Shown here: positions 14,064 to 34,842 of the stretch, piece after piece
Position numbering within the stretch: the first letter of the stretch is position 1
Layout: the number at the start of each line of letters is the position of its first letter
Assembly (NCBI GenBank): GCA_022820995.1
Contig: JAJEEM010000044.1
Location: 2,027-66,026 of the forward strand
Direction of reading: 5' to 3'
DNA length: 64,000 nt
From: Gemmatimonadota bacterium
Lineage (GTDB): Bacteria > Gemmatimonadota > Gemmatimonadetes > Palauibacterales > Palauibacteraceae
Position numbers and translations under genes: made by a program
The notes under the pieces: generated by a model
What the model was told of the DNA's origin: nothing
The model's input: only the letters and a program-made list of their open reading frames with translations
The model's database searches: none

Positions 14064-14166
14064 CCATCCTCCGTTCCGAACCGGTGAATTGTGCGCGAAA
14101 CGGAGCGGATGCGCCACCCCGAACGGGGCCTTCTCCACGCCTCGCGCCCACGCGCCCGCCCATCCG

Positions 14167-15708
14167 TCACGGGTCGGTCAGCTCGAGGAAGCCCGCGCCC
14201 ACCGCGAACGAGAGGGCGGCCAGGAAGTCCGGGAGCGGCACCGCCGTCCCGCGCCGGTTGTACGCCTCGAACAGGTCGGGCACCTGATCGGAGTCCGGCG
14301 CGATCTCCGTGAGCCGGCGGAGGTCGACGTTGCGTACGTAGCGCGCGCCGTCCGGGAGTCGGTCGGAGATAAGGCGCGCCTCGAGGGCGATCCGGTCCTC
14401 GACGACGGCGGGCCGTCGCACGCTCGAGAGTCGCGCCGCCGGGCGCAGGTGCACGGCCGGCAGCGAACGGATCGTCTCCCACGCCGTCCGCACTTCCGGG
14501 CGCCCCAGGAAGGCGTCGACCCGGCGTTCCGCGAGCGGGCGGTCTCCGGGTTCCGACACCGCGGGCGCTCCGGGCGCGGAGGCGGGCCCCGGGAGGTCCG
14601 CGCCCGCTTCCCGCGCCGCAGCCAGGCGAACCTCCCAGAACGCGTGGTCGTTCGCGGCGGCGGCCTGCTCGAAAAAGGGGACGGAGAGCACCCGGTAGGT
14701 CCGGTACACATCGCGTTCCCGGTCGTCGTACAACTCGCAGGCCGGCCCGACCATCGTCTCATCGTCCAGCGCCGTGTGAGTGACGATCGCGGCGAGCCAG
14801 GCGGAGGCGAGCGCCTTCTTGACCCCGTACGAGGAGAGGGGGTCGATGAAGGAGCCGGCGTCGCCGACGAGGAGCAGGCCCGGCCGGCCGTGCGAGGCTG
14901 CGCCGTAGAGCGACGCGGGGCAGGCGCGCACCGGCCCGTCCAGCCGTCCGTCGGCGAGGCGCTCGGCGAGCCGCGCCGCCTTGGCGAGTTCGGCGCGCCA
15001 CATGCCGTCGAGGCCCTTCTCGCGCGCCAGGTGCGTGCGGCGCGGGTCGACCATCGCCGTAACGCAGCGGGTACGCGGCGATGTCGGCACCGACCAGGCC
15101 CACCCGTCCGCGTAGCTCTCGATGAGCGTACAGCCGGGGTCCGGCGGAGCGTGCCCGCGGCCCGCGGTCCAGCGGCCGACGAGCGCGAGCGTGGCGATCC
15201 CGCGTTCGCGCGCCCGCAGCCCGCGCCGGGCGAACACCCCGGCCCGCCCGGAGGCGTCGAGCACCCAGCGACCCCGGTAGCGCGCGGTCGAGGTGGCGAC
15301 GCGCCAGCCATCGGGCTCCTCGGCCGTCTCGATGACCGGTCCGTCCGTCACGAGGCGCACGCCCGCCTTGCGGGCCACTCCGTGGAAGACGGCTTCAAGC
15401 GCCGCCCGATCCGCATGGAAACCATGCTCGGGCGCCCCGAACCGTTCTTCACGGCGGGGCATCCCGGCCCACCAGACGGTGTTGCCCTCGTTCGGCACGA
15501 GGCCCGCCGCGTCCAGGGCTTCCAGCGCTCCCACGCGTTCGAGGAGCTTCCGCGCCGAGCCGGGGATCGACTCGGCGAGCCATTTCGCCGGCGGCGCCGG
15601 CCGCGTGATCAGCGCTACGTCATGCCCGCGCCGCGCCAGCGACGCGGCGGCGGCGCAGCCGGCCGGCCCCCCGCCGACAACAACGACGTCGTACGGCGTA
15701 CCTGTCAG
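14167..15708 (-). CDS. qhpG: FAD-dependent monooxygenase (QhpG-like, tryptophan-halogenase/hydroxylase fold)
   Basis: The GGGPAG dinucleotide-binding motif (YDVVVVGGGPAG) lies upstream of the first in-frame GTG (15534). There is no ATG/GTG/TTG between the upstream in-frame TAA (15715-15717) and that motif. A CTG at 15708 gives a canonical Rossmann N-terminus. Confidence 0.65.
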   Translation of the reverse strand: MTGTPYDVVVVGGGPAGCAAAASLARRGHDVALITRPAPPAKWLAESIPGSARKLLERVGALEALDAAGLVPNEGNTVWWAGMPRREERFGAPEHGFHADRAALEAVFHGVARKAGVRLVTDGPVIETAEEPDGWRVATSTARYRGRWVLDASGRAGVFARRGLRARERGIATLALVGRWTAGRGHAPPDPGCTLIESYADGWAWSVPTSPRTRCVTAMVDPRRTHLAREKGLDGMWRAELAKAARLAERLADGRLDGPVRACPASLYGAASHGRPGLLLVGDAGSFIDPLSSYGVKKALASAWLAAIVTHTALDDETMVGPACELYDDRERDVYRTYRVLSVPFFEQAAAANDHAFWEVRLAAAREAGADLPGPASAPGAPAVSEPGDRPLAERRVDAFLGRPEVRTAWETIRSLPAVHLRPAARLSSVRRPAVVEDRIALEARLISDRLPDGARYVRNVDLRRLTEIAPDSDQVPDLFEAYNRRGTAVPLPDFLAALSFAVGAGFLELTDP

Positions 15709-19185: not shown

Positions 19186-20382
19186 ATGAACGGAAAGCGG
19201 CGAACCCTCATCTTCGGTGTGGTCGCGGGTATCGCCCTCGCGCTCGCGTGCGGCCAGGCGGCCATGGACGACGGGGCTCAGGCCAGCGAGGGCCAGGGCG
19301 TCGAGGCGCCGATGTTCGAGGTGGATCCGTTCTGGCCGAAACCGCTGCCGGACCACTGGGTGCTCGGCTCGGCCATCGGCGTGGGTGTGGACTCGCGCGA
19401 CCACGTCTTCATCGTGCACCGCGGCAACCTCACCGAGCGCACCGAGGGCGGGGCCGACGCCGATCCGCCCATCGGCGAATGCTGCCGCGCCGCGCCGCCC
19501 GTGCTCGAGTTCGATCCGGACGGAAATCTCGTGAACGCCTGGGGAGGCCCCTCCGAGGACTACGTGTGGCCCGGCTCGAACCACGGGATCACCGTCGACC
19601 ACATGGACAACCTGTGGATCGGCGGGAACGGGCCGAACGACACGCACATCCTGAAGTTCTCCCGCGACGGCGAGTTCCTCGCCTCCTACGGCGAGCCGGA
19701 GGCGGGACCGGAACCCGACAGCCACAGCGAGACGCGCTTCAACCGCGTGGCCAAGCTCGCCTTCGACGCCTCGGCCAACGAGGCCTACCTCGCGGACGGC
19801 TACGGGGGACGCAGGGTCGCGGTGCTCGACGCATCGACCGGCGCCTTCAAGCGCTACTGGGGCGCCTACGGGAATGCGCCCGACGACACGCGGACGCCGC
19901 CCTACGACCCCGACGCGCCGCTCATCCAGCAGTTCCGCACGCCGGTGCACTGTGCCGAGCCTTCGCTCGACGGCCTCGTCTACGTGTGCGACCGCCCCAA
20001 CGACCGCATCCAGGTCTTCCAGACGGACGGCACGTACGTGGACGAGGTGCGGATCGCGCCGCGCACGCTCGGCGACGGGTCGACGTGGGACATCGCCTTC
20101 TCGCGCGACGCGGACCAGAAGTACATGTACGTCGCCGACGGGAAGAACATGCGGGTCTACATCATGGACCGCGCCTCGCTCGAGATCCTGACCAGCTTCG
20201 GGGACGGGGGCCGTCAGCCGGGCCAGTTCTTCGCCGTCCACAGCATCGCGACGGACTCGAACGGCAACATCTACACGACCGAAACCTACGAGGGGAAGCG
20301 CGTCCAGAAGTTCGTGTACATGGGCCTGGGCCCGGTACCGGCCGAGCACCAGGGACCGCCCTGGCCGCGCGGCGACCAGTAA
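19186..20382 (+). CDS. Lipoprotein NHL-repeat protein, paralog 1
   Basis: 398 aa. It has a lipobox (LALACGQ), a GECCRAAPPVLEFDPDGNLV motif and NHL blades. Confidence 0.7.
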   Translation: MNGKRRTLIFGVVAGIALALACGQAAMDDGAQASEGQGVEAPMFEVDPFWPKPLPDHWVLGSAIGVGVDSRDHVFIVHRGNLTERTEGGADADPPIGECCRAAPPVLEFDPDGNLVNAWGGPSEDYVWPGSNHGITVDHMDNLWIGGNGPNDTHILKFSRDGEFLASYGEPEAGPEPDSHSETRFNRVAKLAFDASANEAYLADGYGGRRVAVLDASTGAFKRYWGAYGNAPDDTRTPPYDPDAPLIQQFRTPVHCAEPSLDGLVYVCDRPNDRIQVFQTDGTYVDEVRIAPRTLGDGSTWDIAFSRDADQKYMYVADGKNMRVYIMDRASLEILTSFGDGGRQPGQFFAVHSIATDSNGNIYTTETYEGKRVQKFVYMGLGPVPAEHQGPPWPRGDQ

Positions 20383-20410: not shown

Positions 20411-21604
20411 ATGAACGGGAAACGGCGAACCCTCATCGGCGGTGTGACGGCCGGCGTGGTCATCGCCCTCGCCTGCGGGCAGGCGGCGATGGACGACGCG
20501 GGCTCGGCCGACGCGACGGGCTCGGGCGTCGAGGCGCCGATGTTCGAGGTGGACCCCTTCTGGCCCAAACCACTGCCGGAGCACTGGCTGCTCGGCTCCA
20601 CCGTCGGGGTCGGCGTGGACTCCCGCGACCACGTGTTCATCATCCATCGCCGCGCCTCGATCAACCCCGGAACGGAACTGGGGCTCGACGCGGATCCGCC
20701 GACCAGCGAGTGCTGCCGGGCGGCCCCGGAGGTGCTCGAGTTCGATCCCGAGGGGAATCTCGTGAACTCGTGGGGAGGCCCGTCCGACGCCTACGTGTGG
20801 CCCGAGTCGAACCACGGGATCACGGTCGACCACATGGACAACGTGTGGATCGGCGGCAACGGGGCGAGCGACTCGCACGTCCTCAAGTTCTCGCGCGACG
20901 GCGAATTCCTCGCGTCGTACGGACAGCCCGCCCTGGGGCAGGACCCGGACAGCCACAGCGAGACCCGCTACAACCGCCCGGCGAAGGTCGCCTTCGACGC
21001 CGAGGCCAACGAAGCCTACGTCGCGGATGGCTACGGCGGCCGCCGCGTGGCGGTGCTCGACGCGTCGACGGGCGAATTCAAGCGCTACTGGGGCGCCTAC
21101 GGAAACGCGCCGGACGACACGCCGCCGCCGCCCTACGATCCGGATGCGCCGCCGTTCCAGCAGTTCCGCACGCCCGTCCACTGCGCCGACCCCTCGCTGG
21201 ACGGTCTGGTCTACGTCTGCGACCGCGCCGGCGACCGGATCCAGGTCTTCCAGCGGGACGGGACGTACGTGGATGAGATGATGATTGCGCCGCGCACGCT
21301 GGGCGCGGGCTCGACGTGGGACATCGCCTTCTCGCGCGATGCGGACCAGAAGTACATGTACGTCGCCGATGGATCGAACCACCGGGTCTACGTCGTGGAC
21401 CGCGCCTCGCTCGAGGTGCTGACGACGTTCGGCGATGGCGGCCGGCAGCCGGGCCAGTTCATCGGCGTCCACAGCATCGCGACGGACTCGCAGGGCAACG
21501 TCTACACGACCGAGACGTACGACGGGAAGCGGCTCCAGAAGTTCGTCTACATGGGCATGGGCCGCGTACCGGCCGAACAGGGCCCCCTCTGGCCGGGCCG
21601 CTAG
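20411..21604 (+). CDS. Lipoprotein NHL-repeat protein, paralog 2 (tandem duplicate)
   Basis: 397 aa, collinear with paralog 1 and sharing the same N-terminus MNGKRRTLI. Confidence 0.7.
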   Translation: MNGKRRTLIGGVTAGVVIALACGQAAMDDAGSADATGSGVEAPMFEVDPFWPKPLPEHWLLGSTVGVGVDSRDHVFIIHRRASINPGTELGLDADPPTSECCRAAPEVLEFDPEGNLVNSWGGPSDAYVWPESNHGITVDHMDNVWIGGNGASDSHVLKFSRDGEFLASYGQPALGQDPDSHSETRYNRPAKVAFDAEANEAYVADGYGGRRVAVLDASTGEFKRYWGAYGNAPDDTPPPPYDPDAPPFQQFRTPVHCADPSLDGLVYVCDRAGDRIQVFQRDGTYVDEMMIAPRTLGAGSTWDIAFSRDADQKYMYVADGSNHRVYVVDRASLEVLTTFGDGGRQPGQFIGVHSIATDSQGNVYTTETYDGKRLQKFVYMGMGRVPAEQGPLWPGR

Positions 21605-21650
21605 GAGACCCGGAGCCGCCGGGAAACCCGGAGCCGCTAGGAGACCTGCA
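21596..21650. repeat. Short duplicated motif (CCGCTAGGAGACC x2, CCCGGAGCCGC x2) in the convergent intergenic region
   Basis: Read directly from the sequence. Both convergent genes terminate at the TAG embedded in the repeated unit. Confidence 0.3.
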
Positions 21651-24273
21651 GGCGCGCGTACAGGTAGCGGCCGTTGAATCCCATCGCCGAGAACGAGCGG
21701 TAGGGGAAGATCCCTCCGAATGCGTCCACCCGCGTCGGGAAGGCATCGAAGAGGTTCTCGCCGCCGACCGTGAGGCGCCACCTTTCCGCCAGATCGATGT
21801 GGACTCCCGCATCGAAGATGACCTTCGGTTCGAGGAGTCGGATCCTGTGGGGGTGCTCTCCGACGCCGAGCGCGCGCAGTTCCTCCTGCGCCCCGTAGAC
21901 GTTCGCCGCCAGGCCGAACTCGAACGCTCCGCTCGTGAACCCCGCCTGGAACCTGCCGCGCCAGTCCGGGCGTCCCTCCTCGAGGAAGAAGACGTCGAAC
22001 CCGTCGTAGATCCTGAACGATTCGTCCCGCAGCGCCTCGTTCTCCTTCGCGCAGGCCGCGATGTCGCCGTCGGGGCACCGCCCGCGCACCTGCCCCCAGT
22101 GCGCGGAGGCGCCGAACTCAAGGCGTGACGCGTCCCCGAGCCGCCACCCCCACGTGACCCCCGCGTCGATGCCGTACGACCGGAGGTCGACCGCGTTGGA
22201 GAAGAAGCGGATCGATTCCGCGGTGAAGTCCGCCAGCAGAAGCTCGAGGAGGCCGCTGGCGCCCGTCTCCAGCCGGTTGGAGAGGAGGACGGCGTCGTCG
22301 ACCTCCGTCGCATACCCGTCGACCGTGATGTGCAGATCGTCGGCTGGGGTGAGCGCAAACCCCGCGCCGACCGAGCGCGACCTCTCCCCCCGGAGGGGCG
22401 ACGCGCCGACGGCCCGGGCTTCCGGCGCGTCCACGGGGAACGTGCCCGCCTCGAACCCGCGAACGGCGCCCGCCCCGTCCGGGTCTTCGCGACGCCCCGC
22501 CGTCACGTGTCCGTAGTGGGACTGGCTCAACGAGGGCGGCCGGAATCCCGTGGACGCGCTCGCGCGGAAGACGGCGGCTCCGGAGAGCGCGAGGCGCAGC
22601 GCGAGCTTCCCGTTCAGCGTGCCGCCGACATCGCTGAAGCGTTCGTAGCGTCCCGTCGCGGAGACCAGGAGCCACCGTGCGAGCGGCGCGTCGGCGTCAC
22701 CGTGGAGGCTGACGCTCGACCGGTACCAGCCCCCGGACTCCTCCGGCCGGAAACCGGTGAAGCGTTGAGCGCCCGCCGCCGCGACGCCGCCGCTCTGGGT
22801 CGGGTGAAAGCCGTCGATCCGCGACGCGGGTTCTCCCGCCAGGATCCGGTAGCCATCGACGCGGAACGTCGCCCCGAGGCCGAGGCTCAACGGCCCCGCG
22901 CCGAATCCCGTCTCGATCCGACGCCCCACGTCCGCGTTCGCAAGGAACTGGTGGCTTTCGAGCGCGCCCGTGGAGAACCGGGTCCGGTTCGGAATCCCCG
23001 GGTCGTCCGCGGTGCCGGGAATCCCGTCCGCGCCGGGCGCGCACGCGGATTCCAGGCACGGTCCGAGCGACGGATTGAGCGTATCGAACAGGTCATTGTC
23101 GATCCGATTGGCGCCGTATTGCGCGTTCAGGTCCCAGCTCCAACCCCTCCTGGACCCATCCCCGGCCTCCGTCTCGGACCCGGCCCCCTGCCGATCCTCC
23201 ACGCCTCCCCGGAGGCCGGTGACGAGGGAAACGTCCCGCGTATCGGTGTCGAAGCTCGGCAGGAAGCCCAGCGGATGGATCCCGGGCCAGTTGCGGTCCT
23301 CCATCGCGCGCACGAAGACGCCCGAGTGCAGGTCCCGGCGCCGACTGTAACCGCCGAACGCGTAGAGTTCGGCGCCGCCGGAGTCGGCGCGCTGGGTCGT
23401 GAGGGGGAGTTCGAGGTTGGCGAACAACATGACGTTCGAGGACTCTCCGTCTCCCCACAGGTGGTTCGGCTGCGCCACCTCGTTGTGCTTGCGGATGACG
23501 AGGCCCCGGTCGACGAAGTCCGCGTCCCCCGGGAGGATCTGGTCGCGGCCATCGGCGCCCGCGCGGTTCACGGGTTCCCGCTGGCTGAAGGCGCCCGTGA
23601 GGTTCAGGACACCGGCGCGTCCGACCGCGAGTCCCCAGTTCCCGGAGAGGTCATAGCGGAGTCCGTCGTCATCCCATTCGTCCGGAAAGTGGTGGCCGAC
23701 GGAGGCGATGAACTCGGGCGCCGAGACGGTGTTTCGGAGGCGCACGTCGATGACCCCGGCGACCGCGTCGGAGCCGTGCCGCGTCGTGCCTCCGTCGCGC
23801 ATGATTTCCATGCGGTCGATCGCCTGAAGCGGGAAGGCGTTCATGTCCACGCCGCTCCCGCCCGGAAAGGCGCCGCCGCCCAGCGTGTGCACGACCGCCG
23901 TGGCGTGGCGGCGTTTCCCGTTCACGAGGACGAGCGTGTGGTCCGGCGAAAGTCCGCGCAGCTGAAAGGGTCGAACCCCCGACGTGAGATCGGCGAGCTG
24001 CCGGCGCGGGAAGTAGGCGGATGGCAGGAGTTCGCTGAGGACGGCAGCGAGTTCCGCCTGCCCGGTCTCGAGAATCTCCGCCCGCGAAAACAGTTCGCCG
24101 GACGCCGTCCTCCGCTCGTGAGCCGCCCGACCGAGAGTGTCCGGCGATGTGCGACCGGACGGGTCGGCCTGCGCCTCGGCGGCCCGGGGCGCGGCAGCCG
24201 AGTACGTCGCGGCGCCGGCGAGGAGCAGCGTGCCGAGCGCGAACCGCGCCGGTGAGATCCGCGTGTCGGTCAT
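21637..24273 (-). CDS. TonB-dependent outer-membrane receptor
   Basis: 878 aa with a signal peptide, a plug region (FPLQAIDRMEIMRDGGTTRHGSDAVAGVIDVRL) and a long barrel. The C-terminus is aromatic-rich (...YLYARLQVS). Confidence 0.8.
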   Translation of the reverse strand: MTDTRISPARFALGTLLLAGAATYSAAAPRAAEAQADPSGRTSPDTLGRAAHERRTASGELFSRAEILETGQAELAAVLSELLPSAYFPRRQLADLTSGVRPFQLRGLSPDHTLVLVNGKRRHATAVVHTLGGGAFPGGSGVDMNAFPLQAIDRMEIMRDGGTTRHGSDAVAGVIDVRLRNTVSAPEFIASVGHHFPDEWDDDGLRYDLSGNWGLAVGRAGVLNLTGAFSQREPVNRAGADGRDQILPGDADFVDRGLVIRKHNEVAQPNHLWGDGESSNVMLFANLELPLTTQRADSGGAELYAFGGYSRRRDLHSGVFVRAMEDRNWPGIHPLGFLPSFDTDTRDVSLVTGLRGGVEDRQGAGSETEAGDGSRRGWSWDLNAQYGANRIDNDLFDTLNPSLGPCLESACAPGADGIPGTADDPGIPNRTRFSTGALESHQFLANADVGRRIETGFGAGPLSLGLGATFRVDGYRILAGEPASRIDGFHPTQSGGVAAAGAQRFTGFRPEESGGWYRSSVSLHGDADAPLARWLLVSATGRYERFSDVGGTLNGKLALRLALSGAAVFRASASTGFRPPSLSQSHYGHVTAGRREDPDGAGAVRGFEAGTFPVDAPEARAVGASPLRGERSRSVGAGFALTPADDLHITVDGYATEVDDAVLLSNRLETGASGLLELLLADFTAESIRFFSNAVDLRSYGIDAGVTWGWRLGDASRLEFGASAHWGQVRGRCPDGDIAACAKENEALRDESFRIYDGFDVFFLEEGRPDWRGRFQAGFTSGAFEFGLAANVYGAQEELRALGVGEHPHRIRLLEPKVIFDAGVHIDLAERWRLTVGGENLFDAFPTRVDAFGGIFPYRSFSAMGFNGRYLYARLQVS

Positions 24274-24446
24274 CCCGCATCTTCACACGCGCTTGCGCCG
24301 AGCGCCAACGTGCGGCGCCGGACCCCCCGGTCGCCGCCGGACCCCGGCTGTCCCCGCCATCCAGCTTCCGCGCTGTACGGCGCGCGGATGGAGCGCAAGA
24401 TTCGGGGCTCGGCTGCACTGAACGACTTCCGAAGGATACGGCAACC

Positions 24447-27400
24447 GTGGCAGAATCCCGCACCGCCCGACCGACGACCCGAATCGCACGGACCCTGCTC
24501 GCGCTGGCGCTGCTCGGCACTTCCGCTTCCGCGGGCGCGCACGCCCAGCCCGTCGACGACGGATGGCTCGATCTCCTCGAATGGCGCTCGATCGGACCCA
24601 CCCGCGGCGGCCGCGTGCTCGGCGTGGCCGGCCACCCCACGGACGATCTCGTCTTCTACCAGGGCGTCGCCGGCGGCGGCGTCTGGAAGACCGGGGATGG
24701 CGGGGCGAACTGGCGGAACGTCTCCGACGGCTACTTCGGCACGGGCTCCGTCGGAGCCGTCGAGGTCAGCCCTTCCCACCCCGAAATCGTCTACGTCGGC
24801 ATGGGCGAGACGTGCATCCGCGGCAACGCCTCGCACGGCGACGGCGTCTACCGCTCCGATGACGGGGGCGCAAGCTGGCGGCACCTCGGGCTTGCGGAGA
24901 CGCTTCAGATCGCCCGCGTGCGCATACATCCGGGGAACCCCGACGTCGCCTGGGTGGCGGCGCTCGGCGACGCCTGGGGCGCGAGCGAGGCGCGCGGCGT
25001 CTACCGCACGCGCGACGGCGGCGCGACATGGGAGAAGGTCCTCTACCGGGACGAGAACTCCGGCGCGATCGATCTCGTGCTCGATCCCGCGAACCCCGAT
25101 GTCCTGTACGCGTCGCTGCTGGAATTGAGGCGCTTCCCCTGGGGCTTCCGCAGCGCGGGCCCCGGCACCGGACTCTTCAAGAGCACGGACGGCGGCGACA
25201 CGTGGACCGAGTTGACGGACAATCCCGGCCTCCCGTCCGGCCTCAAGGGACGGATCGGGATCACCATCTCGCCACGGAACTCAAATCGTCTGTGGGCGAT
25301 CGTCGACGCGGCGCGCGGAGCGAAGGGGATCTTTCGCTCCGACGACGCGGGAGAGACGTGGACGCGCGTGAACGAAGACGCCAACCTCCTCCAGCGCCCG
25401 TGGTACTACCACCACATCGTCGCGGACCCCGGCGACGAGAACACGGTCTTCGTCCTCAACGTCCTCCTCTGGAAGTCGACGGACGGCGGCGAGACCTTCG
25501 AGCGCGTCTTCACGCCGCACCCGGATCACCACGACCTGTGGATCGATCCCGCGAATCCCCGGCGGATGGTCAACGGGAGCGACGGCGGCGCCGCGGTAAG
25601 CTTCGACGGCGGCCTCTCGTGGTCGAGTCTTCTCAACCAGGCGACGGCGCAGATGTACCACGTGACCGCCGACCACCAGACGCCGTACCGGCTCTACGCT
25701 TCACAGCAGGACAACACGTCGATCTCCGTCCCCGTCCGCTCCGACTTCGGCCGCATCAGCATCGAGGACTGGTACACCGTGGGCGGAGGCGAAGACGGTT
25801 ACATCGCGGTGAACACCGAGGACCCGAACATCGTCTACGCGGGGGATCATCACTGGGTGTACCGCTACGACCACCGCAACCGGCAAGTGCGCGACATCTC
25901 CCCGAACCCCGAGACGCACTACGGCTGGGGTTCGGCGGACATCAACTACCGGTTCTGGTGGACGTATCCGGTGATGACGTCGCCCCACGACCCGGACATC
26001 CTCTACGTCACCTCGCAGCACGTCCACCGGACGACGGACGAGGGTCACAGCTGGGAGGTCATCAGCCCCGACCTCACGCGCGCCGACCCGCGGACGCTGG
26101 AGCCGACGCCGGCGTACGAAGATGAGGAGACGGGAGAATACTGGGGGCCGATCACGCGGGAGGCGTACGGTCCCGAATGGTACGCGACCATCTTCGCGTT
26201 CGCCGAGTCGCCGCTCGATCCGGGGCTCCTGTGGGCGGGATCGGATGACGGGTACATCCACGTGTCGCGCGACGGCGGCGCGAACTGGGAGAACGTGACG
26301 ATCCCGGGGCTGCCCGAGTTCGCGCTCATCTCCATCCTCGAGCCATCGCTCCACGATCCCGCGACCGCCTATGTCGCCGCAACGCGGTACAAGCTCTCGG
26401 ACCATGCTCCGTATCTGTACCGGACCACGGACTACGGGGAGACGTGGACCCGGATCACGGCCGGGATCCCGGACGACGACTTCACGCGCGTCATCCGGGA
26501 GGATCCGGGCCGGGCCGGGCTCCTGTACGCCGGCACCGAACGCACCGTCCATGTCTCGTTCGACGCCGGGGACTCCTGGCAGCCGCTGAGCCTCAACCTC
26601 CCGGTCGTCCCCATCCACGACCTCGTGCTCCGGGACGGGGACCTCGCGGCGGCCACGCACGGGCGCTCGTTCTGGGTCCTGGACAACGTGGACCTGCTCC
26701 ACCAGCTCGCGGCCGGCGAAGGGGCGAGCGAGCCGAGGCTCTTCCGTCCGCCCACCACGACCCGCTTCAACCCGGGCGCCTCGCCCGCCGCCCTGTTCTC
26801 GACCATGGGCCGGCCGGGCGCGGGGGATCCGGCCGGGGCGAATCCGCCGGACGGGGTCGTGATCCCGTACTACCTCCCCGAGGCCGCGCCGGGCGGGATC
26901 ACGCTGCGGATCCGTGAAGGCGAGGCGCTGATCCGCGAATTCTCCAGCGAGACGGCCTCGGAGCCGACCGGGGCGGGCTTCTTCGGCTTCGGCGGCGGCG
27001 GCGCGACGCTCTCCGCCGACGCCGGCGCGCACACGTTCGTGTGGGACCTGCGCGTGGAGCCGGCCGACGTGCTCGACGGCGCCGTCTTCCAGGGGAGCGC
27101 CCAGGGCCCTCGCGTGCCGCCCGGCGACTACACGGTCGAGCTGGATCTGGGCGAGCGGACCCTCTCGCAGCCCTTCACGGTCGTACGCGATCCGAGGGTG
27201 GACGTGACGGACGAGGAACTGCGCGCACAGTTCGAGTTCCTCCTTGAAGCGAGGGATCGCCTGACCGAGACGATGGAGCTGGTGGCGAGGATCCGGGACC
27301 TGCGGACCCGGGCCGAGCAGGCCGTGGAACGCGGCGGGGGAGGGGACCGTCTGCAGGCCGCGCTCTCGGACCTGAACGGCGAGCTCTACCCCGTCGAGGA

Positions 27401-27632
27401 GCGCCTCGTGCAGTACCGGGCTCGCGCCGGTCAGGACCTGATCGCGAACCCGACGGGCATCGACAGCAAGCTGGCCCGGCTCATGGGGTTCGCCTCGATG
27501 GGAGACGGCCCGCCCACGCAGGGACAGATCGACCTTCTGACCCGCCTGGGGGTCGGAATCGAGGAGCGGGCCGCGGCGGTGGACGAAATCGAGCGAACGA
27601 CGTGGGCGGAACTCGTGAGACTCGTCCCCTGA
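24447..27632 (+). CDS. Secreted BNR/Asp-box repeat protein (sortilin/GH74-like double propeller)
   Basis: About 1061 aa. The GTG start gives a signal peptide (...SASAGAHAQP). It has 10 or more S/T-x-D-G-G-x-T/S-W motifs. Confidence 0.7.
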   Translation: MAESRTARPTTRIARTLLALALLGTSASAGAHAQPVDDGWLDLLEWRSIGPTRGGRVLGVAGHPTDDLVFYQGVAGGGVWKTGDGGANWRNVSDGYFGTGSVGAVEVSPSHPEIVYVGMGETCIRGNASHGDGVYRSDDGGASWRHLGLAETLQIARVRIHPGNPDVAWVAALGDAWGASEARGVYRTRDGGATWEKVLYRDENSGAIDLVLDPANPDVLYASLLELRRFPWGFRSAGPGTGLFKSTDGGDTWTELTDNPGLPSGLKGRIGITISPRNSNRLWAIVDAARGAKGIFRSDDAGETWTRVNEDANLLQRPWYYHHIVADPGDENTVFVLNVLLWKSTDGGETFERVFTPHPDHHDLWIDPANPRRMVNGSDGGAAVSFDGGLSWSSLLNQATAQMYHVTADHQTPYRLYASQQDNTSISVPVRSDFGRISIEDWYTVGGGEDGYIAVNTEDPNIVYAGDHHWVYRYDHRNRQVRDISPNPETHYGWGSADINYRFWWTYPVMTSPHDPDILYVTSQHVHRTTDEGHSWEVISPDLTRADPRTLEPTPAYEDEETGEYWGPITREAYGPEWYATIFAFAESPLDPGLLWAGSDDGYIHVSRDGGANWENVTIPGLPEFALISILEPSLHDPATAYVAATRYKLSDHAPYLYRTTDYGETWTRITAGIPDDDFTRVIREDPGRAGLLYAGTERTVHVSFDAGDSWQPLSLNLPVVPIHDLVLRDGDLAAATHGRSFWVLDNVDLLHQLAAGEGASEPRLFRPPTTTRFNPGASPAALFSTMGRPGAGDPAGANPPDGVVIPYYLPEAAPGGITLRIREGEALIREFSSETASEPTGAGFFGFGGGGATLSADAGAHTFVWDLRVEPADVLDGAVFQGSAQGPRVPPGDYTVELDLGERTLSQPFTVVRDPRVDVTDEELRAQFEFLLEARDRLTETMELVARIRDLRTRAEQAVERGGGGDRLQAALSDLNGELYPVEERLVQYRARAGQDLIANPTGIDSKLARLMGFASMGDGPPTQGQIDLLTRLGVGIEERAAAVDEIERTTWAELVRLVP

Positions 27633-27648: not shown

Positions 27649-28428
27649 TCAGCGGTCGCGCGTCGTGATCACGAGAGCGCCGATGTAGCCGTCGCCCCCG
27701 TAGCGCGCGGAAGCTTCGGTCCGCGACAGGATCTCGATCCGGCTCACCTCGTCGATCGACAGCTCGCGAATCGCGTTCACGCCATCGCCTTCGCGCCTCT
27801 CGTTGATGCGAACCTCCATCGCCTGCTCCCGGAAGGATCCCCATGAGCTCAACGTCACCGACGTGAGGAGGATGACCTCGCCGAGCGTGCTCATGCGGTC
27901 GAATTTCAGGAGCGAGTGTTGGCGCAGAAGCTCGTACACGCTCATCTCGGGAAGATCCACCAGATCCTCGGCCCGGATGACCTCGGAGCCCAGGACCCGG
28001 CTCCGGCTGCCCCCTCCGGCCAGGGATCCGACCTCCTCCCTCCGGGGGTCCGCGGTCAGGGAGAGGGAGAGATCCTGCTGCGCCAGCGTGACCGTGGTGG
28101 TGTACGGGACGGCTTCGCCTCGCCGATCCCCGAAGATGGCCCGCAACGAGACCTCAATGTCCTGCGGCAATCCGCAGATGGCGTAGAGACCCTCCATGCC
28201 GACCTCGGCTTCGACGCGTTGGCGGGCGTCGAACTGCACCCAGCTCGCCGCCACGGTCGCCCCGGGCACGATCGTCGCCGCTTCGGGGTCCGTCACGTAA
28301 CCCACGACGGCCGCTTCCGTCTCGGGGTCCCCGCCGGGGCAGAAATCGGCGAACGACTGGGCGGCCGCGGAGTTCGCGACCACGAGCATCAGCGCCGGCG
28401 CCGAAAGGCGTACAAACGAGTGCGGCAT
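27649..28428 (-). CDS. Secreted protein comprising only a TonB-receptor N-terminus (carboxypeptidase-regulatory-like domain + plug), copy 1
   Basis: 259 aa with a signal peptide and a VVGYVTDPEA...GATVAASWVQ beta-sandwich region. It then has the plug-like stretch EVIRAEDLVDLPEMSVYELL...ARYGGDGYIGALVITTRDR. No barrel follows. Confidence 0.55.
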   Translation of the reverse strand: MPHSFVRLSAPALMLVVANSAAAQSFADFCPGGDPETEAAVVGYVTDPEAATIVPGATVAASWVQFDARQRVEAEVGMEGLYAICGLPQDIEVSLRAIFGDRRGEAVPYTTTVTLAQQDLSLSLTADPRREEVGSLAGGGSRSRVLGSEVIRAEDLVDLPEMSVYELLRQHSLLKFDRMSTLGEVILLTSVTLSSWGSFREQAMEVRINERREGDGVNAIRELSIDEVSRIEILSRTEASARYGGDGYIGALVITTRDR

Positions 28429-28454
28429 GTCGACTGCTCTCCCTCCGAAGCCGG

Positions 28455-29234
28455 CTAGCGGCCTCGCGTTGTAATCGCGATCGCTCCGACGAAACCGTCT
28501 CCGCCGTAGCGCGCGGAAGCTTCGGTACGCGTCAGGATCTCGATCCGGCTGACGTCATCGATCGACAGGTCGCGGATCGCCGCAACGCCGTCCACCTCCC
28601 GCCGCTCGTTGATTCTCACCTGCACGGACTGCAGGCGACCGGCGCGGAGGCTCGATGTCGCGGAGGTGAGGAGGATGACCTCGCCCAGCGTGCTCATGCG
28701 GTCGAACCTGAGAAGCTGGTGCCGGCGCAGCAGTTCGTACACGCTCATCTCGGGCAGATGAAGGAGATCCTCCGCGCGGATGACTTCAGAGCTGAACGCC
28801 TGGCCCCTGCCGCCGCCGGCGGCCAGCGATCCGACCTCCTCGCGCGTCTCGGGTTCGCCGGTAAGCGAAATGAAGAGATCCGCCTGGGCCAGCGGGGCGG
28901 ACGTCGCGTAGGGAACGGCCTCTCCGCGCCGGTCTCCGAGGAGGGCCCGCAGCGTGACTTCCGTGTCCTGCGGCAGCCCGCAAAGCGCATAGAGACCCTG
29001 AATGTCCGTCTGCACCTCGATTCGCCGGCGCTCGTCGTCCTGCACCCAGCTTGCGGCCACGGTCGCGCCGGGTACGACCGTCTCCGCCTCCGGATCCGTC
29101 ACATAGCCCACCACGGCCGCCTGCGTCGCTTCGTCGCCGCCGGGACAGAAGTCGGCGAACGACTGGGCCGCGGAGGTATTCGCGATGACCAGAAACAGGA
29201 CAGGCCCCGTAAGGCGCACGATCGAGTGCCGCAT
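28455..29234 (-). CDS. Same architecture as above, copy 2 (tandem paralog, about 70% identical)
   Basis: 259 aa. It starts MRHSIVRL where copy 1 starts MPHSFVRL. The shared AAQSFADFCPGGD and plug-like C-terminus are present. Confidence 0.55.
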   Translation of the reverse strand: MRHSIVRLTGPVLFLVIANTSAAQSFADFCPGGDEATQAAVVGYVTDPEAETVVPGATVAASWVQDDERRRIEVQTDIQGLYALCGLPQDTEVTLRALLGDRRGEAVPYATSAPLAQADLFISLTGEPETREEVGSLAAGGGRGQAFSSEVIRAEDLLHLPEMSVYELLRRHQLLRFDRMSTLGEVILLTSATSSLRAGRLQSVQVRINERREVDGVAAIRDLSIDDVSRIEILTRTEASARYGGDGFVGAIAITTRGR

Positions 29235-29453
29235 GTCGATCCCTCTCGTCTGCGTTGGTTCTTCCCGGCTGTAGCACGCGTGTGCGGGCACGGCGCCGAT
29301 GGGTGTCGCGGTGCGAGCGACCCACCGACCTTTTAGGATACTCCCCGGCCGATTTGCGTTTAGTCCGGGGCCCCTCGGGAAGTCGACGACCCCGACCTCT
29401 CCTGTACCCCGCAACATGCCGCGGGTGCCGTCCCGGGCGTTACGGAGGAGCCG

Positions 29454-30827
29454 CTGAGCAAGATCGACAGACGAGACTTCGTGCGCCGCGCCGGGTGCTG
29501 GGCGGGGGCCGCGGCGCTCGCGCCTTCGCTCTCGGGTCTCGCCGCGTGTGCCCGACCCGCAACCGCGTCCACGGCCAGGTCGGATCGCGGATCCGCGGGA
29601 TACGGACCGCTGCGCCCGGCAGGGCCGGAGCTCGCCCTCCCCGAGGGGTTTTCCTACGCCGTTTTCGGCGTGGAAGGCCGGCCGATGTCGGACGGTCGGC
29701 CCACGCCCCGCGCGCACGACGGAATGGGACTCTTCCCGGTGAGCGACGATGTCGTCCGCCTGGTGCGAAACCATGAAGATCAGGACCCTCCCGGCGTCGC
29801 GGTTCCGCTGGTCCCCCCCGAACTGGCGTACGATCCCCTCGCGGGCGGGGGCACGACGACGCTGGAAGTCCGGATCGAGGCGGACGGGCGTCCCGTCCTC
29901 CTGCGGGATTTCGTGAGCGCGGGAGGCACGCTGATCAACTGCGCGGGGGGGACGACGCCGTGGCGCAGCTGGCTGACGTGCGAGGAAACGACCTTCGGAC
30001 CTGGGCGCGGCTGGACGGTGCCCCACGGGTATGTGTTCGAGGTTCCCGCCGATGCGGACGAACCGGTCCGGGCCGAACCGATACGGGACATGGGACGGTT
30101 CACGCACGAAGCCATCGCGGTGGACCCCGCGACGGGATTCGTCTACGAGACGGAAGACTACAATCGTCGCTCGGGGTTCTATCGCTTTCGCCCCCATACT
30201 CCCGGCGTCCTCCGGGACGGGGGCGTTCTGGAGATGCTCGCCGTGCGGGGGGCGCCGCAGGTGGATCTCCGCACCGGGCAGCAGCCGGGGGCGTGGCGTG
30301 AGGTCGAATGGGTGCCGATCGAGAACCCCGACCCGCCCGAAGCCGAGCGCAGCGCGTCCACGGTGTGGCGGGAGGGATTCGAGGCGGGCGGGGCCCGGTT
30401 CTCCCGGCTCGAGGGCTGCTGGTACGGGGACCGGAGCATCTATTTCCACGCGACGAACGGGGGCGACGCCCAGCTGGGCCAGGTCTGGCGGTACGTACCG
30501 GAGGAAGAGGCGCTCGCGCTCGTCTTCGAGTCGCCGTCGGAGGATGTCCTCTCCGGTCCCGACAACCTCACGGTGAGTCCCCGGGGCGGGATCCTCATCT
30601 GCGAGGACAACTCCGGAGAAACGCACCTCCGGGGATTGGCGCCCGACGGGGAGATCTTCCCCTTCGCCCGAAATCTCCTGAACGTGCGCGAGTTCGCCGG
30701 CGCCTGCTTCACGCCCGACGGCCGGACGCTCTTCATCAACCTCCAGGGAGACACGGTCTCGATGGGCGCGGGGAATTTCGGCCAGACGTTCGCGATCTGG
30801 GGACCGTGGGAGCGGGGGCCGCTCTGA
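29454..30827 (+). CDS. Tat-secreted PhoX/DUF839-like beta-propeller protein (putative phosphatase)
   Basis: The twin-arginine motif DRRDFVRRAG precedes the first GTG (29481). The only in-frame start upstream of the RR is a CTG at 29454, 3 nt after a GGAGGAG SD. Confidence 0.6.
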   Translation: MSKIDRRDFVRRAGCWAGAAALAPSLSGLAACARPATASTARSDRGSAGYGPLRPAGPELALPEGFSYAVFGVEGRPMSDGRPTPRAHDGMGLFPVSDDVVRLVRNHEDQDPPGVAVPLVPPELAYDPLAGGGTTTLEVRIEADGRPVLLRDFVSAGGTLINCAGGTTPWRSWLTCEETTFGPGRGWTVPHGYVFEVPADADEPVRAEPIRDMGRFTHEAIAVDPATGFVYETEDYNRRSGFYRFRPHTPGVLRDGGVLEMLAVRGAPQVDLRTGQQPGAWREVEWVPIENPDPPEAERSASTVWREGFEAGGARFSRLEGCWYGDRSIYFHATNGGDAQLGQVWRYVPEEEALALVFESPSEDVLSGPDNLTVSPRGGILICEDNSGETHLRGLAPDGEIFPFARNLLNVREFAGACFTPDGRTLFINLQGDTVSMGAGNFGQTFAIWGPWERGPL

Positions 30828-31680: not shown

Positions 31681-34600
31681 ATGCTTCGAAGAACTCACGC
31701 GCTCGTCGCGCTGGCCGCTCTCGCGGCCTTCTCGGGTCCCGCCGCTGCCGCGCTGGAGGGGCAGGCCGGCCGGTATTTCGGCCGGAACAAGGTGGTCTAC
31801 GAGTCTTTCGACTTCGAGGTGCTCAAGACGCAGCACTTCGACATCTACTACTACGAGGAGAGCGCGGTCGGCGCGCAGATGGTGGGCCGCCTCGCCGAGC
31901 GCTGGTACGCCCGCCTCTCCCGGGTGCTCAACCACGAGTTCCGCCAGCGCCAGCCGATCATCCTCTACGCCGACCATCCGGATTTCGAGCAGACGAACAC
32001 GTCCGGCCAGTTCATCGACGAGGGCACGCAGGGCTTCACGGAGATCCTGAAGCGGCGGCTCGTCATGCCGATGATGGTGTCGCTCCACGAGACCGATCAC
32101 CTGCTCGGCCACGAACTCGTGCACGCCTTCCAGTTCGACATGACGGGGCAGGGGACGGGAGGCCCGGGGCTGGACGTGCCCGGCGCGATCCGGCTCCCGC
32201 TGTGGTTCATCGAAGGCATGGCCGAATACCTCTCGATCGGACCCATCGACCCGTTCACGACGATGTGGATGCGGGACGCCCTGGATCTGGAGGACGGGTT
32301 CCCGACGATTCCGGAACTCGCTGACAGGCGGTACTTCCCGTACCGCTACGGCCACGCCTTCTGGTCCTACATCGGCGGTGCGTTCGGGGACGACCGGATC
32401 GGCAGGATTCTCAATCTCGCCGCGCGCACGGGGAACGCGCTGGCGGCGATCGAAGCCGTTCTCGAGGTGCCGATCGGAGAGCTTTCGGATCGCTGGAAGA
32501 CCGAACTCGAGACCTATTTCGCGGACGCGCGCCAGGAGACCCGATCCCCCGACGACTACGGGCGGCGCGTCGTCTACGAGCCTCCCGATGAGGGGAAGCT
32601 CCACCTTGGCCCGGCGCTGAGTCCCAACGGCCTGGACATGGTCTACGTTTCGCAGAGCGACCTCTTCTCCATCGAGATGTTCGGGGCCGACGCACGCACC
32701 GGAGAGGTGAAGCGCCGCCTCACGAACAACGCGGTCGACCCGCACTTCGAGAGCCTCCAGTTCATCCACTCGGCCGGGGACTGGCACCCGAACGGCCGGC
32801 TCTTCGCGGTCGCCGGCATCAAGACGGGCAATCCGCTGCTCACGATCATGGAGGCGGAGAGCGGAAACATCGTCAGGGAGATCCCGGTCGAGGGATTTCA
32901 GCTGGGCGCGATCTTCACGCCGAGCTGGTCGCCGGACGGGTCGCACATCGCGTTCAGCGGCCACTCCGCCGGATTCACGGACCTGTATGTGATCAACGTC
33001 GAAACCGGGCAGCTGAGGCGGCTCACGGAGGACCCGTTCGCCGACCTCCAGCCCGCCTGGTCGCCCGATGGCCGGTCGGTGGCGTTCGCGACGGACCGCT
33101 TCACGACCGATCTGGAGCTGCTCGTCCCCGGGACCTACCAGATCGCGCTGGTGGACCTGGAGAGCGGGGAGATCGAGCCGCTGCCGGGCTTCGACGACCA
33201 GTTCAGGAACTACAATCCGCAGTGGTCGCCGGACGGCCGCAGCGTGTACTTCGTGTCGGACCACGACGGGATCGCCAATCTCTACCGGCTCGACCTCGAG
33301 ACGCGGGAGCGGTACCTGGTCACCGACCTGTGGACCGGAGTGAGCGGACTCACGGCCATCAGCCCGGCCGTGTCCGTGGCCCGCGCCACCGGCGATGTCG
33401 CGTTCAGCGTGAACAAGGGCGGGCCGTTCAGCTACGAGATCTACGTGATCGACGATCCGGAGGTCCTGGCGGGGGAGCCGGCGCCGGAGATGCTCGTGGG
33501 CGTTGACGCCTCGATCATCCCGCCGCGGGAACGGATGTCGACCACGCACGCGGAACTGCTCTCCAACGCCCGCCTCGGCCTGGCCGACCCGATCACCTTC
33601 GAAGAGGGCGAGTTCCAGTCGCGGCTGTCCCTCGACTTCATCTCGCAGCCCACCATCGCCTTCGGGGCGAGTGATTTCGGGGTCTTCTTCGCGGGCGGCG
33701 CGAGCCTCTTCTTCTCGGACCTGCTCGGAAACCGCACGCTGCAGACCATCCTGAACGTCAATACGACCTTCGGGAACCTGGTTCAGGGGACGGCGCTCCT
33801 CGCCGGCTACGAGAACCGGTCCAGCCGCTGGAACTGGGCGATGATCGGAGGCCAGGTGCCGCTGGTCACGCGCCAGATCGGATTCCAGTCGGTTCAGGCC
33901 GGGGGCAGGTACGTAAACGCTTTTCAGGACTTCCGCTGGTTCGAGGTCAACCGGGAGCTGACCGGAATCGTCGCCTATCCCTTCAACCGGAACTCGCGGG
34001 TCGAATTCTCCGCCTCGGCGCGCCAGATCGACTTCTCCGGCGAGATCGAGGAGTTCGGGTTCGACGCCTTCACGGGTCAGCTGCTGTTCCAGGAGGAAAC
34101 GGATCTGCCGGATTGCGCGGGAGAGATCGTGTCGTTCGGGGAGGAGCCCTGCGCCTTCGAGTCGCTGTACACGGCGAGCGGAAGCGCGGCCCTCGTATAC
34201 GACAGCTCGATTTTTGGCGGCACGAGTCCGATCGCCGGGCAGCGCTACCGTCTGGAAGTGGAGCCGGCGTTTGGAACCCTCAACTTCCTCACGGTCACCG
34301 GCGACGTTCGGCAATATGTTCGCGCCGGGCCCTTCACGGTCGCCGGACGCGCCCTCCACTTCGGCCGTTGGGGCGGCGGAGCTGACGATCCGCGCCTGGG
34401 CCGACTCTACCTCGGGGTGCCATCCCTCGTTCGCGGATACGACAACCGGTCCATCGATGTCGTCGAGTGCACGAGCTCGGGTCAGGCCGCGTTCTTCAAC
34501 TGTCCTCTCATCGCGAACCTCATCGGCAACCGCGTGGCGGTAGGCAACGTGGAGCTGCGGCTTCCCCTCCTGGGCGGGATCGGCGTGATCCGGGCCGCGG

Positions 34601-34842
34601 GCGTGCCCCCGGTCGAAGTCGGCCTCTTCTATGACATGGGCAAGGCGTGGTCGGGGGAAACGCCCCTGAACTGCCCGGATGGAAACTGCTCGTTCGAGGA
34701 TCGGAACTGGGTGTCGAGCGCCGGCCTTCTTGCACGGGTCAACCTCTTCGGCCTCATGATCGGCGAACTCAACTTCGTGCGGCCGTTCGATCGTCCCGAC
34801 AAGGGCTGGATCTGGCAGTTCAATCTGACGCCCGGATTCTGA
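31681..34842 (+). CDS. Large outer-membrane protein: HExxH metallopeptidase-like N-terminus + TolB/PD40-like beta-propeller + C-terminal beta-barrel
   Basis: 1053 aa with a signal peptide, HELVHAF and repeated WSPDG(S/R) PD40 blades. The C-terminal residue is Phe (...NLTPGF), which is typical of OM barrels. Confidence 0.6.
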   Translation: MLRRTHALVALAALAAFSGPAAAALEGQAGRYFGRNKVVYESFDFEVLKTQHFDIYYYEESAVGAQMVGRLAERWYARLSRVLNHEFRQRQPIILYADHPDFEQTNTSGQFIDEGTQGFTEILKRRLVMPMMVSLHETDHLLGHELVHAFQFDMTGQGTGGPGLDVPGAIRLPLWFIEGMAEYLSIGPIDPFTTMWMRDALDLEDGFPTIPELADRRYFPYRYGHAFWSYIGGAFGDDRIGRILNLAARTGNALAAIEAVLEVPIGELSDRWKTELETYFADARQETRSPDDYGRRVVYEPPDEGKLHLGPALSPNGLDMVYVSQSDLFSIEMFGADARTGEVKRRLTNNAVDPHFESLQFIHSAGDWHPNGRLFAVAGIKTGNPLLTIMEAESGNIVREIPVEGFQLGAIFTPSWSPDGSHIAFSGHSAGFTDLYVINVETGQLRRLTEDPFADLQPAWSPDGRSVAFATDRFTTDLELLVPGTYQIALVDLESGEIEPLPGFDDQFRNYNPQWSPDGRSVYFVSDHDGIANLYRLDLETRERYLVTDLWTGVSGLTAISPAVSVARATGDVAFSVNKGGPFSYEIYVIDDPEVLAGEPAPEMLVGVDASIIPPRERMSTTHAELLSNARLGLADPITFEEGEFQSRLSLDFISQPTIAFGASDFGVFFAGGASLFFSDLLGNRTLQTILNVNTTFGNLVQGTALLAGYENRSSRWNWAMIGGQVPLVTRQIGFQSVQAGGRYVNAFQDFRWFEVNRELTGIVAYPFNRNSRVEFSASARQIDFSGEIEEFGFDAFTGQLLFQEETDLPDCAGEIVSFGEEPCAFESLYTASGSAALVYDSSIFGGTSPIAGQRYRLEVEPAFGTLNFLTVTGDVRQYVRAGPFTVAGRALHFGRWGGGADDPRLGRLYLGVPSLVRGYDNRSIDVVECTSSGQAAFFNCPLIANLIGNRVAVGNVELRLPLLGGIGVIRAAGVPPVEVGLFYDMGKAWSGETPLNCPDGNCSFEDRNWVSSAGLLARVNLFGLMIGELNFVRPFDRPDKGWIWQFNLTPGF

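Follow-up and report, generated by a model that had tools for sequence, protein, structure and literature searches.

Tandem genes for exported, barrel-less proteins with a TonB-receptor plug-like domain in Palauibacter and related Gemmatimonadota

The plug of TonB-dependent transporters (TBDTs) comprises 130–160 aa, has its N-terminus on the periplasmic side and is usually regarded as inseparable from the barrel. In the Oar/SusC class, represented by Oar of M. xanthus and Bt1763 of B. thetaiotaomicron, an extension domain at the N-terminus ('NTE') is followed by the TonB box, the plug and a 22-stranded barrel (PMC7782687; PMC6434023). The TonB box of Bt1763 (DEVVVTG) follows the NTE domain (PMC7782687), and a fragment of Oar comprising residues 24–248, that is NTE and plug but no barrel, binds the TonB C-terminal domain in a bacterial two-hybrid assay (PMC6434023). 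Here we analyse a stretch of 64,000 nucleotides (the window) on contig JAJEEM010000044.1 of a Gemmatimonadota bacterium, in which two tandem genes, designated copy B and copy A, encode 259-aa proteins that show the same order of parts as these transporters and stop at the plug/barrel junction. The genome belongs to the Palauibacterales, an order from marine and sponge-associated habitats (PMC10469786).

Two further systems resemble these proteins. The FepA N-domain and the FhuA cork are, like the window proteins, exported plug polypeptides without a covalently attached barrel. They are, however, engineered fragments, and the FhuA cork is functional with its barrel only (Braun 2003, as reported in PMC2615193), whereas the barrel-less form in the window is a natural, selected product with a predicted compact fold. 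Closer in sequence are entries from Gemmatimonadota (Longimicrobium and others) that are annotated as 'TonB-dependent receptor plug domain-containing' or 'carboxypeptidase regulatory-like domain-containing' and belong to the same superfamily. They likewise consist of one or more CarboxypepD_reg domains and a C-terminal plug-like domain without a barrel, and are frequently tandem paralogues. The Palauibacter family is distinguished by a single N-domain, two invariant cysteines and its own linker motif, while the relatives have 3–5 N-terminal domains, or none together with a lipid anchor. Such relatives already carry database labels; the family of autonomous plug-like domains as such is uncharacterised and surprisingly large, and a literature search found no paper on a characterised barrel-less plug protein for any member of the superfamily.

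Architecture, conservation and selection of the two genes

Copy B (28455..29234, minus strand) is the upstream and copy A (27649..28428, minus strand) the downstream member of the pair, stop codons included. They are separated by 26 bp, and a purine-rich Shine-Dalgarno-like tract precedes each of them. The two proteins share 72% identity (84% positives) and both terminate with ...ARYGGDG(Y/F)(I/V)GA(L/I)(V/A)ITTR(D/G)R-stop. These positions, lengths and C-termini agree with an initial annotation of the window, which had put the identity at roughly 70%. A profile scan of all open reading frames (ORFs) of the window found no third copy of the family. The G+C content of the window is about 70%, and its nearest relatives are Candidatus Palauibacter and other Gemmatimonadota metagenome-assembled genomes only.

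Domain calls at the level of sequence are weak for both copies. Copy B matched Pfam CarboxypepD_reg (PF13620) with an E-value of 1.5e-5 and 25.7 bits, which is below the cut-off of 32.3 bits, and Pfam Plug (residues 146–250) with an E-value of 4.6e-5 and 24.3 bits, barely above the cut-off of 23.9 bits. The Plug match of copy A (residues 149–250; E 0.0021, 19 bits) was below the cut-off. Of the NCBIfam models, those for SusC/RagA and BtuB matched the last 31–52 residues alone and scored far below their cut-offs; neither the full-length SusC/RagA model TIGR04056 nor the signature TIGR04057 reached its threshold, both aligning to the last 31–47 residues alone (E 0.003–0.06). The 22-stranded barrel (PF00593) gave no match in either copy.

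Structure prediction supported the domain calls. An AlphaFold2 (AF2) model built from 29 family members, with a mean predicted local distance difference test score (pLDDT) of 79, consists of four parts: an unstructured signal peptide (1–23), a beta-sandwich (38–117), a disordered linker (129–142) and an alpha/beta C-domain (150–256). In copy B the signal peptide MRHSIVRLTGPVLFLVIANTSAAQ (residues 1–24; 29163..29234, minus strand), followed by S, shows a basic n-region, then a hydrophobic core and a c-region with AAQ|S, and reads as a Sec-type signal without lipobox, as judged from the sequence alone. Its last residue, Q24, is invariant in alignment A1, and pLDDT is below 50 at residues 1–23. 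The transthyretin-like, 'NTE'-type beta-sandwich follows at residues 25–125 (28860..29162, minus strand), with the strands at 38–117 predicted at a pLDDT of about 90. When the full-length model was used as a Foldseek query, matches to this N-domain alone were returned, namely transthyretin-like domains, carboxypeptidase D/N regulatory domains, CnaB domains of SpaA and the structure 3e8v. C30 and C85 are invariant in the N-domain in the alignment and would fit a disulfide formed outside the cytoplasm.

An acidic, Gly-rich, flexible linker (residues 126–145; 28800..28859, minus strand; pLDDT below 50 at 129–142) connects the N-domain to the C-terminal plug-like alpha/beta domain, which was delimited by the Pfam Plug match and the AF2 domain model (residues 146–259; 28458..28799, minus strand). 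Within the linker lies a TonB-box-like motif, EEVGSLA (residues 132–138; 28821..28841, minus strand), that is conserved across orthologues. By alignment, the corresponding parts of copy A, all on the minus strand, are the transthyretin-like domain at residues 25–124 (28057..28356), the motif EEVGSLA at residues 131–137 (28018..28038) and the plug-like domain at residues 145–259 (27652..27996; Pfam Plug and alignment A2).

The isolated C-domain was modelled with a pLDDT of 86 and a predicted template modelling (TM) score of 0.81. In a Foldseek search of the PDB with this model the top 34 matches were all TBDT plugs (TM 0.5–0.63), including those of Cir, SusC homologues, PfeA, PirA, RagA, TbpA, BtuB, Fiu and FhuA. 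Matches below the top 34 were noise, and no barrel-less structure was among them. A comparison of the family sequence profile with PDB chains identified no solved TBDT at a significant level; the best match was a SusC homologue (E 0.72). Since the top structural matches of the C-domain are all TBDT plugs, the plug assignment holds at the fold level. The architecture proposed in the initial annotation, a signal peptide followed by a carboxypeptidase-regulatory-like and a plug-like domain, is thus upheld by weak Pfam matches and by structure prediction in agreement with them. Its plug assignment passes the hidden Markov model search for copy B (24.3 versus 23.9 bits) and fails it for copy A (19 bits), and is backed by the fold comparison.

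The likeness to the Oar/SusC class extends to the C-terminus, as the window proteins close with ...IEIL..EASARYGGDG..GAI.ITTR, in agreement with the terminal part of the Plug and SusC signatures. The CarboxypepD_reg extension (PF13620/PF13715) is present ahead of the TonB-box-like motif and the plug-like domain, recognised by its fold match, with the score of copy B below the gathering score. The TBDT plug (PF07715) is likewise recognised by its fold, with weak sequence evidence. It is smaller than the plugs of TBDTs and very divergent from them: where these have the 'RG' motif and the PGV region, the window family has INER and an invariant His. As the defining barrel is missing, the window proteins are not TBDTs.

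We next consider whether the two genes are remnants of a duplicated TonB-dependent receptor (TBDR) gene, a view in keeping with their architecture, which is that of an Oar/SusC-type TBDT over its first ~250 residues. All 71 close homologues end at ...ITTR plus 0–3 residues, none has a barrel, and their length is 247–282 aa except for one of 228 aa. When one genome for each GTDB species was scanned with alignment A1, the gene was found in 32 species-level genomes, always with ~260 aa and at the same locus. All 32 species are Gemmatimonadota; one record (L012, JAGWAK010000004.1) is labelled 'Acidimicrobiia bacterium', but its locus is 93% identical to copy B and shows Palauibacter synteny, and the record is probably a mis-binned contig. 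The tandem pair is present in 9 of the 32 species and a single copy in the remainder. Orthologues in other Palauibacter genomes are 95% identical to copy B and 94% to copy A.

The ratio of nonsynonymous to synonymous substitution rates (dN/dS; Nei-Gojobori) was 0.11–0.14 for each copy compared to close orthologues (copy A 0.11, copy B 0.11), and 0.21 between copy A and copy B, at a dS of 0.80; over all comparisons it ranged from 0.11 to 0.24. In a neighbour-joining tree the A-type and B-type sequences form separate clades, with some single-copy species within each. The low dN/dS values, together with this tree, show that both copies are kept by selection. The tree pattern also suggests an old tandem duplication inside Palauibacter that was followed by differential loss. 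In Palauibacter and related Gemmatimonadota the gene thus belongs to the conserved core as a single copy, which was tandem-duplicated within the genus.

A frameshifted barrel-coding sequence downstream can be excluded. Copy A starts 26 bp past copy B, and a convergent BNR/sortilin-like gene (24147..27632, plus strand) ends 17 bp from the copy A stop codon; because these two genes fill the downstream DNA, a barrel cannot be accommodated, whether in frame or after a frameshift, and no trace of one is present. Recent truncation of the neighbouring TBDR gene (878 aa; 21637..24273, minus strand) was rejected as well, the family profile missing this TBDR at E < 1. In hhalign comparisons the last ~37 residues alone of the local TBDR plugs align with the family, and since the shared stretch is confined to these residues, the family did not arise by recent truncation of a local TBDR. 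None of the marks of a pseudogene, be it relaxed selection, variable truncation points or a frameshifted continuation, was found, so that conservation and selection together refute the remnant view. The earlier argument against simple decay, drawn from the two intact copies, is strengthened by purifying selection on both and by the constant length in 32 species. Taken together, copies A and B are, with high confidence, genuine genes under selection, and their products are exported two-domain proteins without a barrel that belong to a Gemmatimonadota-wide superfamily.

The superfamily of barrel-less plug-like proteins

Searching 1.84 billion representative proteins with the family profile gave 599 hits at E <= 1e-3, the best 150 of which were inspected for barrel room. 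In all of these, no more than about 210 residues follow the plug-like domain, so that no barrel is possible in the best 150 of the 599 hits. We define the superfamily by an export signal, the lack of a barrel and a plug-like domain at the extreme C-terminus that closes with ...I.I.T(R/K); alignments A1–A4 show both window proteins to possess these features. H172, E185, R242 and Y166 are invariant throughout the superfamily.

Members occur in several forms. Plug-only lipoproteins of 130–170 aa consist of a lipobox signal (L-A-x-C) that is directly followed by the plug-like domain. At three loci (L040, 3043..3480; L042, 8001..8423; L043, 3053..3475) such lipoproteins of 140–145 aa are encoded directly downstream of a CtpB_N/PDZ/Peptidase_S41 gene, and both genes are part of a block of housekeeping genes (tmk…obg…dprA…dnaJ). 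By analogy to NlpI-Prc and LbcA-CtpA, in which an adaptor lipoprotein serves a C-terminal processing protease, these lipoproteins may act as adaptors for the neighbouring protease. Multi-domain relatives of 450–920 aa combine 3–5 CarboxypepD_reg domains with a terminal Plug; proteins of several CarboxypepD_reg domains and Plug yielded 361 hits at E <= 1e-10 and are abundant in Longimicrobium and the Longimicrobiaceae. In the Longimicrobiaceae they form tandem arrays of 4–5 paralogues with no barrel gene nearby. Two such arrays (L046, 1893..12487; L048, 6635..20029) are made up of 4–5 paralogues of ~800 aa in a row, with multiple CarboxypepD_reg domains and Plug at the C-terminus; an HTH/HipA toxin-antitoxin-like pair precedes and a DUF4142 gene follows each of them.

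The N-domain also occurs apart from the plug-like domain. Relatives of ~235 aa (P0081, P0089, P0090, P0093, P0096, P0099–P0103; alignment A3) have the same N-domain, including the FCP...LCGLP cysteines, fused to an unrelated C-domain of unknown fold that is rich in conserved Cys. Given this fusion, both domains are shuffled as independent modules. In the superfamily, which spans the phylum, the plug-like domain is a C-terminal module in its own right. Free-standing plug proteins had been called unusual in the initial annotation. This does not apply to the Gemmatimonadota, in which plug-only lipoproteins and hundreds of multi-CarboxypepD_reg/Plug proteins make them abundant. As such relatives are numerous and arrayed, tandem barrel-less CarboxypepD_reg/Plug genes recur across the phylum and are not a local oddity.

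Possible functions and the surrounding genes

The linker motif E-(V/I)-G-S-L-(A/S), located ~12–14 residues ahead of the first plug strand in a region predicted to be disordered, shows a column conservation of 80–90% in 42 orthologues. The most distant members have EEIVV(D/E)G at this position, and a Palauibacter Oar-type TBDR has DELAVAV at the equivalent one. The TonB box of Bt1763 occupies the same relative position, and the mature window proteins are natural counterparts of the Oar fragment 24–248. We therefore propose a tentative model in which the soluble protein, which lacks a barrel and has about 235 residues when mature, would remain in the periplasm after export by the Sec system and represent a transporter's N-terminal module in free form, with NTE domain, TonB-box-like linker and compact plug-like domain in the order found in Oar/SusC. 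Its linker motif would pair with the TonB C-terminal domain. As a result, TonB-dependent energisation would be modulated or competed for, or TonB would be coupled to another envelope partner; the protein itself would not form a transporter. We assign a probability of roughly 0.35 to this reading, in which the free modules would act as modulators, competitors or adaptors. The conserved motif lends some support to the idea of decoys or regulators voiced in the initial annotation.

Several observations weigh against it. To our knowledge, no natural soluble TonB decoy has been described. Neither tonB/exbBD nor a second TBDR was found among the 20 large ORFs of the window that were scanned. The Palauibacter motif EVGSLA is degenerate, with Gly/Ser where canonical TonB boxes have branched hydrophobics. 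The plug-only lipoproteins have no TonB-box-like linker, which excludes TonB binding as a function common to all plug-like domains. The gene context names no functional partner: of the 32 loci, 27 have PhoX as divergent neighbour, but the most distant ones do not. In addition, the isolated FepA plug was unfolded in vitro (Usher 2001, as cited in PMC11658791), and for this reason folding of a free plug cannot be taken for granted, even though AF2 predicts it with confidence in the present case.

The proteins may instead be periplasmic adaptors, scaffolds or binding proteins that are independent of TonB, both domains being generic protein or ligand binders with no link to outer-membrane transport. 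The plug-like domain alone as lipoprotein of 140–170 aa without TonB-box linker speaks for this, as does its location, in two genomes, directly downstream of a CtpB-like S41 protease in a housekeeping block far from any TBDR. The fusion of the N-domain to the unrelated Cys-rich domain is in line with such a role; the superfamily-invariant residues H172, E185, R242 and Y166 differ from the TBDT plug consensus at equivalent positions, and the 4–5 paralogues of the Longimicrobiaceae arrays are too many for plausible TonB decoys. This explanation leaves a conserved short motif in a disordered linker at the TonB-box position without a role, however, and the context of the Palauibacter loci points to no ligand or partner; we hold it to be possible but doubtful. 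A structural function, in which the plug-like domain would anchor or target transthyretin-like 'stalk' domains of an envelope-spanning or surface protein, as in the long multi-domain relatives, has a slim chance of being correct. In its favour, 1 to 5 CarboxypepD_reg/SdrD-B/SpaA-like domains precede a plug-like domain that closes the protein in nearly all relatives, and arrays of this kind are typical of stalks and adhesins. Against it, each window protein has just one such domain, the gene context shows no linked secretion or anchoring machinery, and the N-terminus of a TBDT plug faces the periplasm.

It was also suggested initially that the proteins could be components of a split receptor. 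In such a receptor a trans-acting plug would enter a separately encoded, plug-less barrel from the periplasm and TonB would pull on the linker motif. The end of the proteins at the exact plug/barrel boundary and the retained TonB-box-like motif are compatible with this, and separately made FhuA cork and barrel do assemble in E. coli (Braun et al. 2003, as reported in PMC2615193). A TBDR orthologue on the same strand is present within 8 kb downstream (the flank analysed) in 16 of the 32 loci. The TBDR of the window, which had been described as complete, has its own Plug (2.6e-12) and barrel (4.7e-21) domains in Pfam, however, and its orthologues also carry plugs of their own, as does the Oar-type TBDR near the pair in locus L001 (CarboxypepD_reg and Plug). 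No barrel-only gene adjoins any homologue at the loci examined, including those of the lipoprotein and multi-domain relatives, and the plug-like domain, with about 110 aa, is small for a TBDT plug. One apparent exception was found at locus L006, where a precomputed annotation showed barrel only for the TBDR gene directly after a single plug gene and a 196-aa ORF. A direct scan revealed a weak plug, and the gene is a 43%-identical orthologue of the window TBDR. The 196-aa gene was considered as a degraded second copy and rejected, as there is no similarity. Gene context thus gives the split-receptor idea no support, and we regard it as quite unlikely.

With respect to the flanking genes, PhoX alkaline phosphatase (29481..30827, plus strand) is divergent from copy B, and a Pfam scan detected no barrel in it or in the BNR/sortilin-like gene, in agreement with the earlier statement that neither adjacent gene encodes one. 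Across genomes the conserved order is Tricorn/PD40 (minus), RlpA (minus), PhoX (minus), plug gene(s) (plus), BNR (minus), TBDR (plus) and NHL (minus). The most distant members have unrelated neighbours (NDH-2, methyltransferase, carbamoyltransferase and molybdoenzyme genes).

In the divergent intergenic region between PhoX and copy B, about 70–130 nt upstream of copy B, we identified a conserved non-coding block of ~60 nt (ACTAAACGCAAATCGG..GGAGTATCCTAAAAGGTCGGTGGGTCGCTCGCACCGCGA; 29305..29364, minus strand). In an alignment of 12 species its columns are near-invariant across Palauibacter, whereas the flanks diverge. GTATCCTAAA occurs once in the window. The block has no match in Rfam and its folding energy is not unusual (z-score -0.6), which speaks against an RNA element; scans for sigma-70 promoters and terminators gave nothing informative. 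A promoter or another regulatory site, perhaps common to the divergent PhoX and plug genes, may lie in the block.

Other genes of the neighbourhood are also of note. Next to the TBDR, the window contains a second pair of tandem paralogues on the plus strand (19186..20382 and 20411..21604), which encode exported NHL-repeat proteins of ~398 aa; orthologues in one or two copies hold the same TBDR-side position in many Palauibacter genomes. The gene at 31681..34842 (plus strand), whose synteny with the plug gene extends to all 32 species, encodes an exported protein of 1053 aa with Tricorn/PD40 beta-propeller domains. Its C-terminal part contains the Omp85-type loop-6 motif SLVRGYD and ends with ...NLTPGF, and the L006 orthologue has a weak Omp85 match in Pfam, so the product may be an Omp85-family barrel in which propellers replace the POTRA domains. 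Further away (10855..15534, minus strand) are genes for a radical-SAM protein, the alpha subunit of quinohemoprotein amine dehydrogenase (QHNDH) with four QHNDH domains, and a Trp-halogenase-like flavoprotein. This group, which looks like a QHNDH maturation cluster, recurs beyond the TBDR in L006.

Implications

The family is conserved and maintained by selection, and its plug-like domain occurs without a barrel in several forms: as a lone lipoprotein, behind one transthyretin-like domain and behind arrays of such domains. This provides a handle on whether a plug can fold and act autonomously, on how plug and barrel were joined in evolution, and on the role of the NTE domain in Oar/SusC transporters. 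The superfamily as a whole could represent natural trans-acting parts of the TonB-dependent machinery, either detachable plugs for separate barrels or soluble proteins with a TonB box by which TonB energy is gated or rationed, a view that we consider unlikely at present. If this were true, the plug would be an autonomous mobile domain, and the proteins could be the ancestral free-standing form that was later fused to a barrel. If the linker motif of the Palauibacter proteins binds TonB, they would be the first soluble TonB-box proteins of natural origin, and a new layer of control on the energy supply of the outer membrane might exist in an abundant uncultured marine and sponge-associated lineage.

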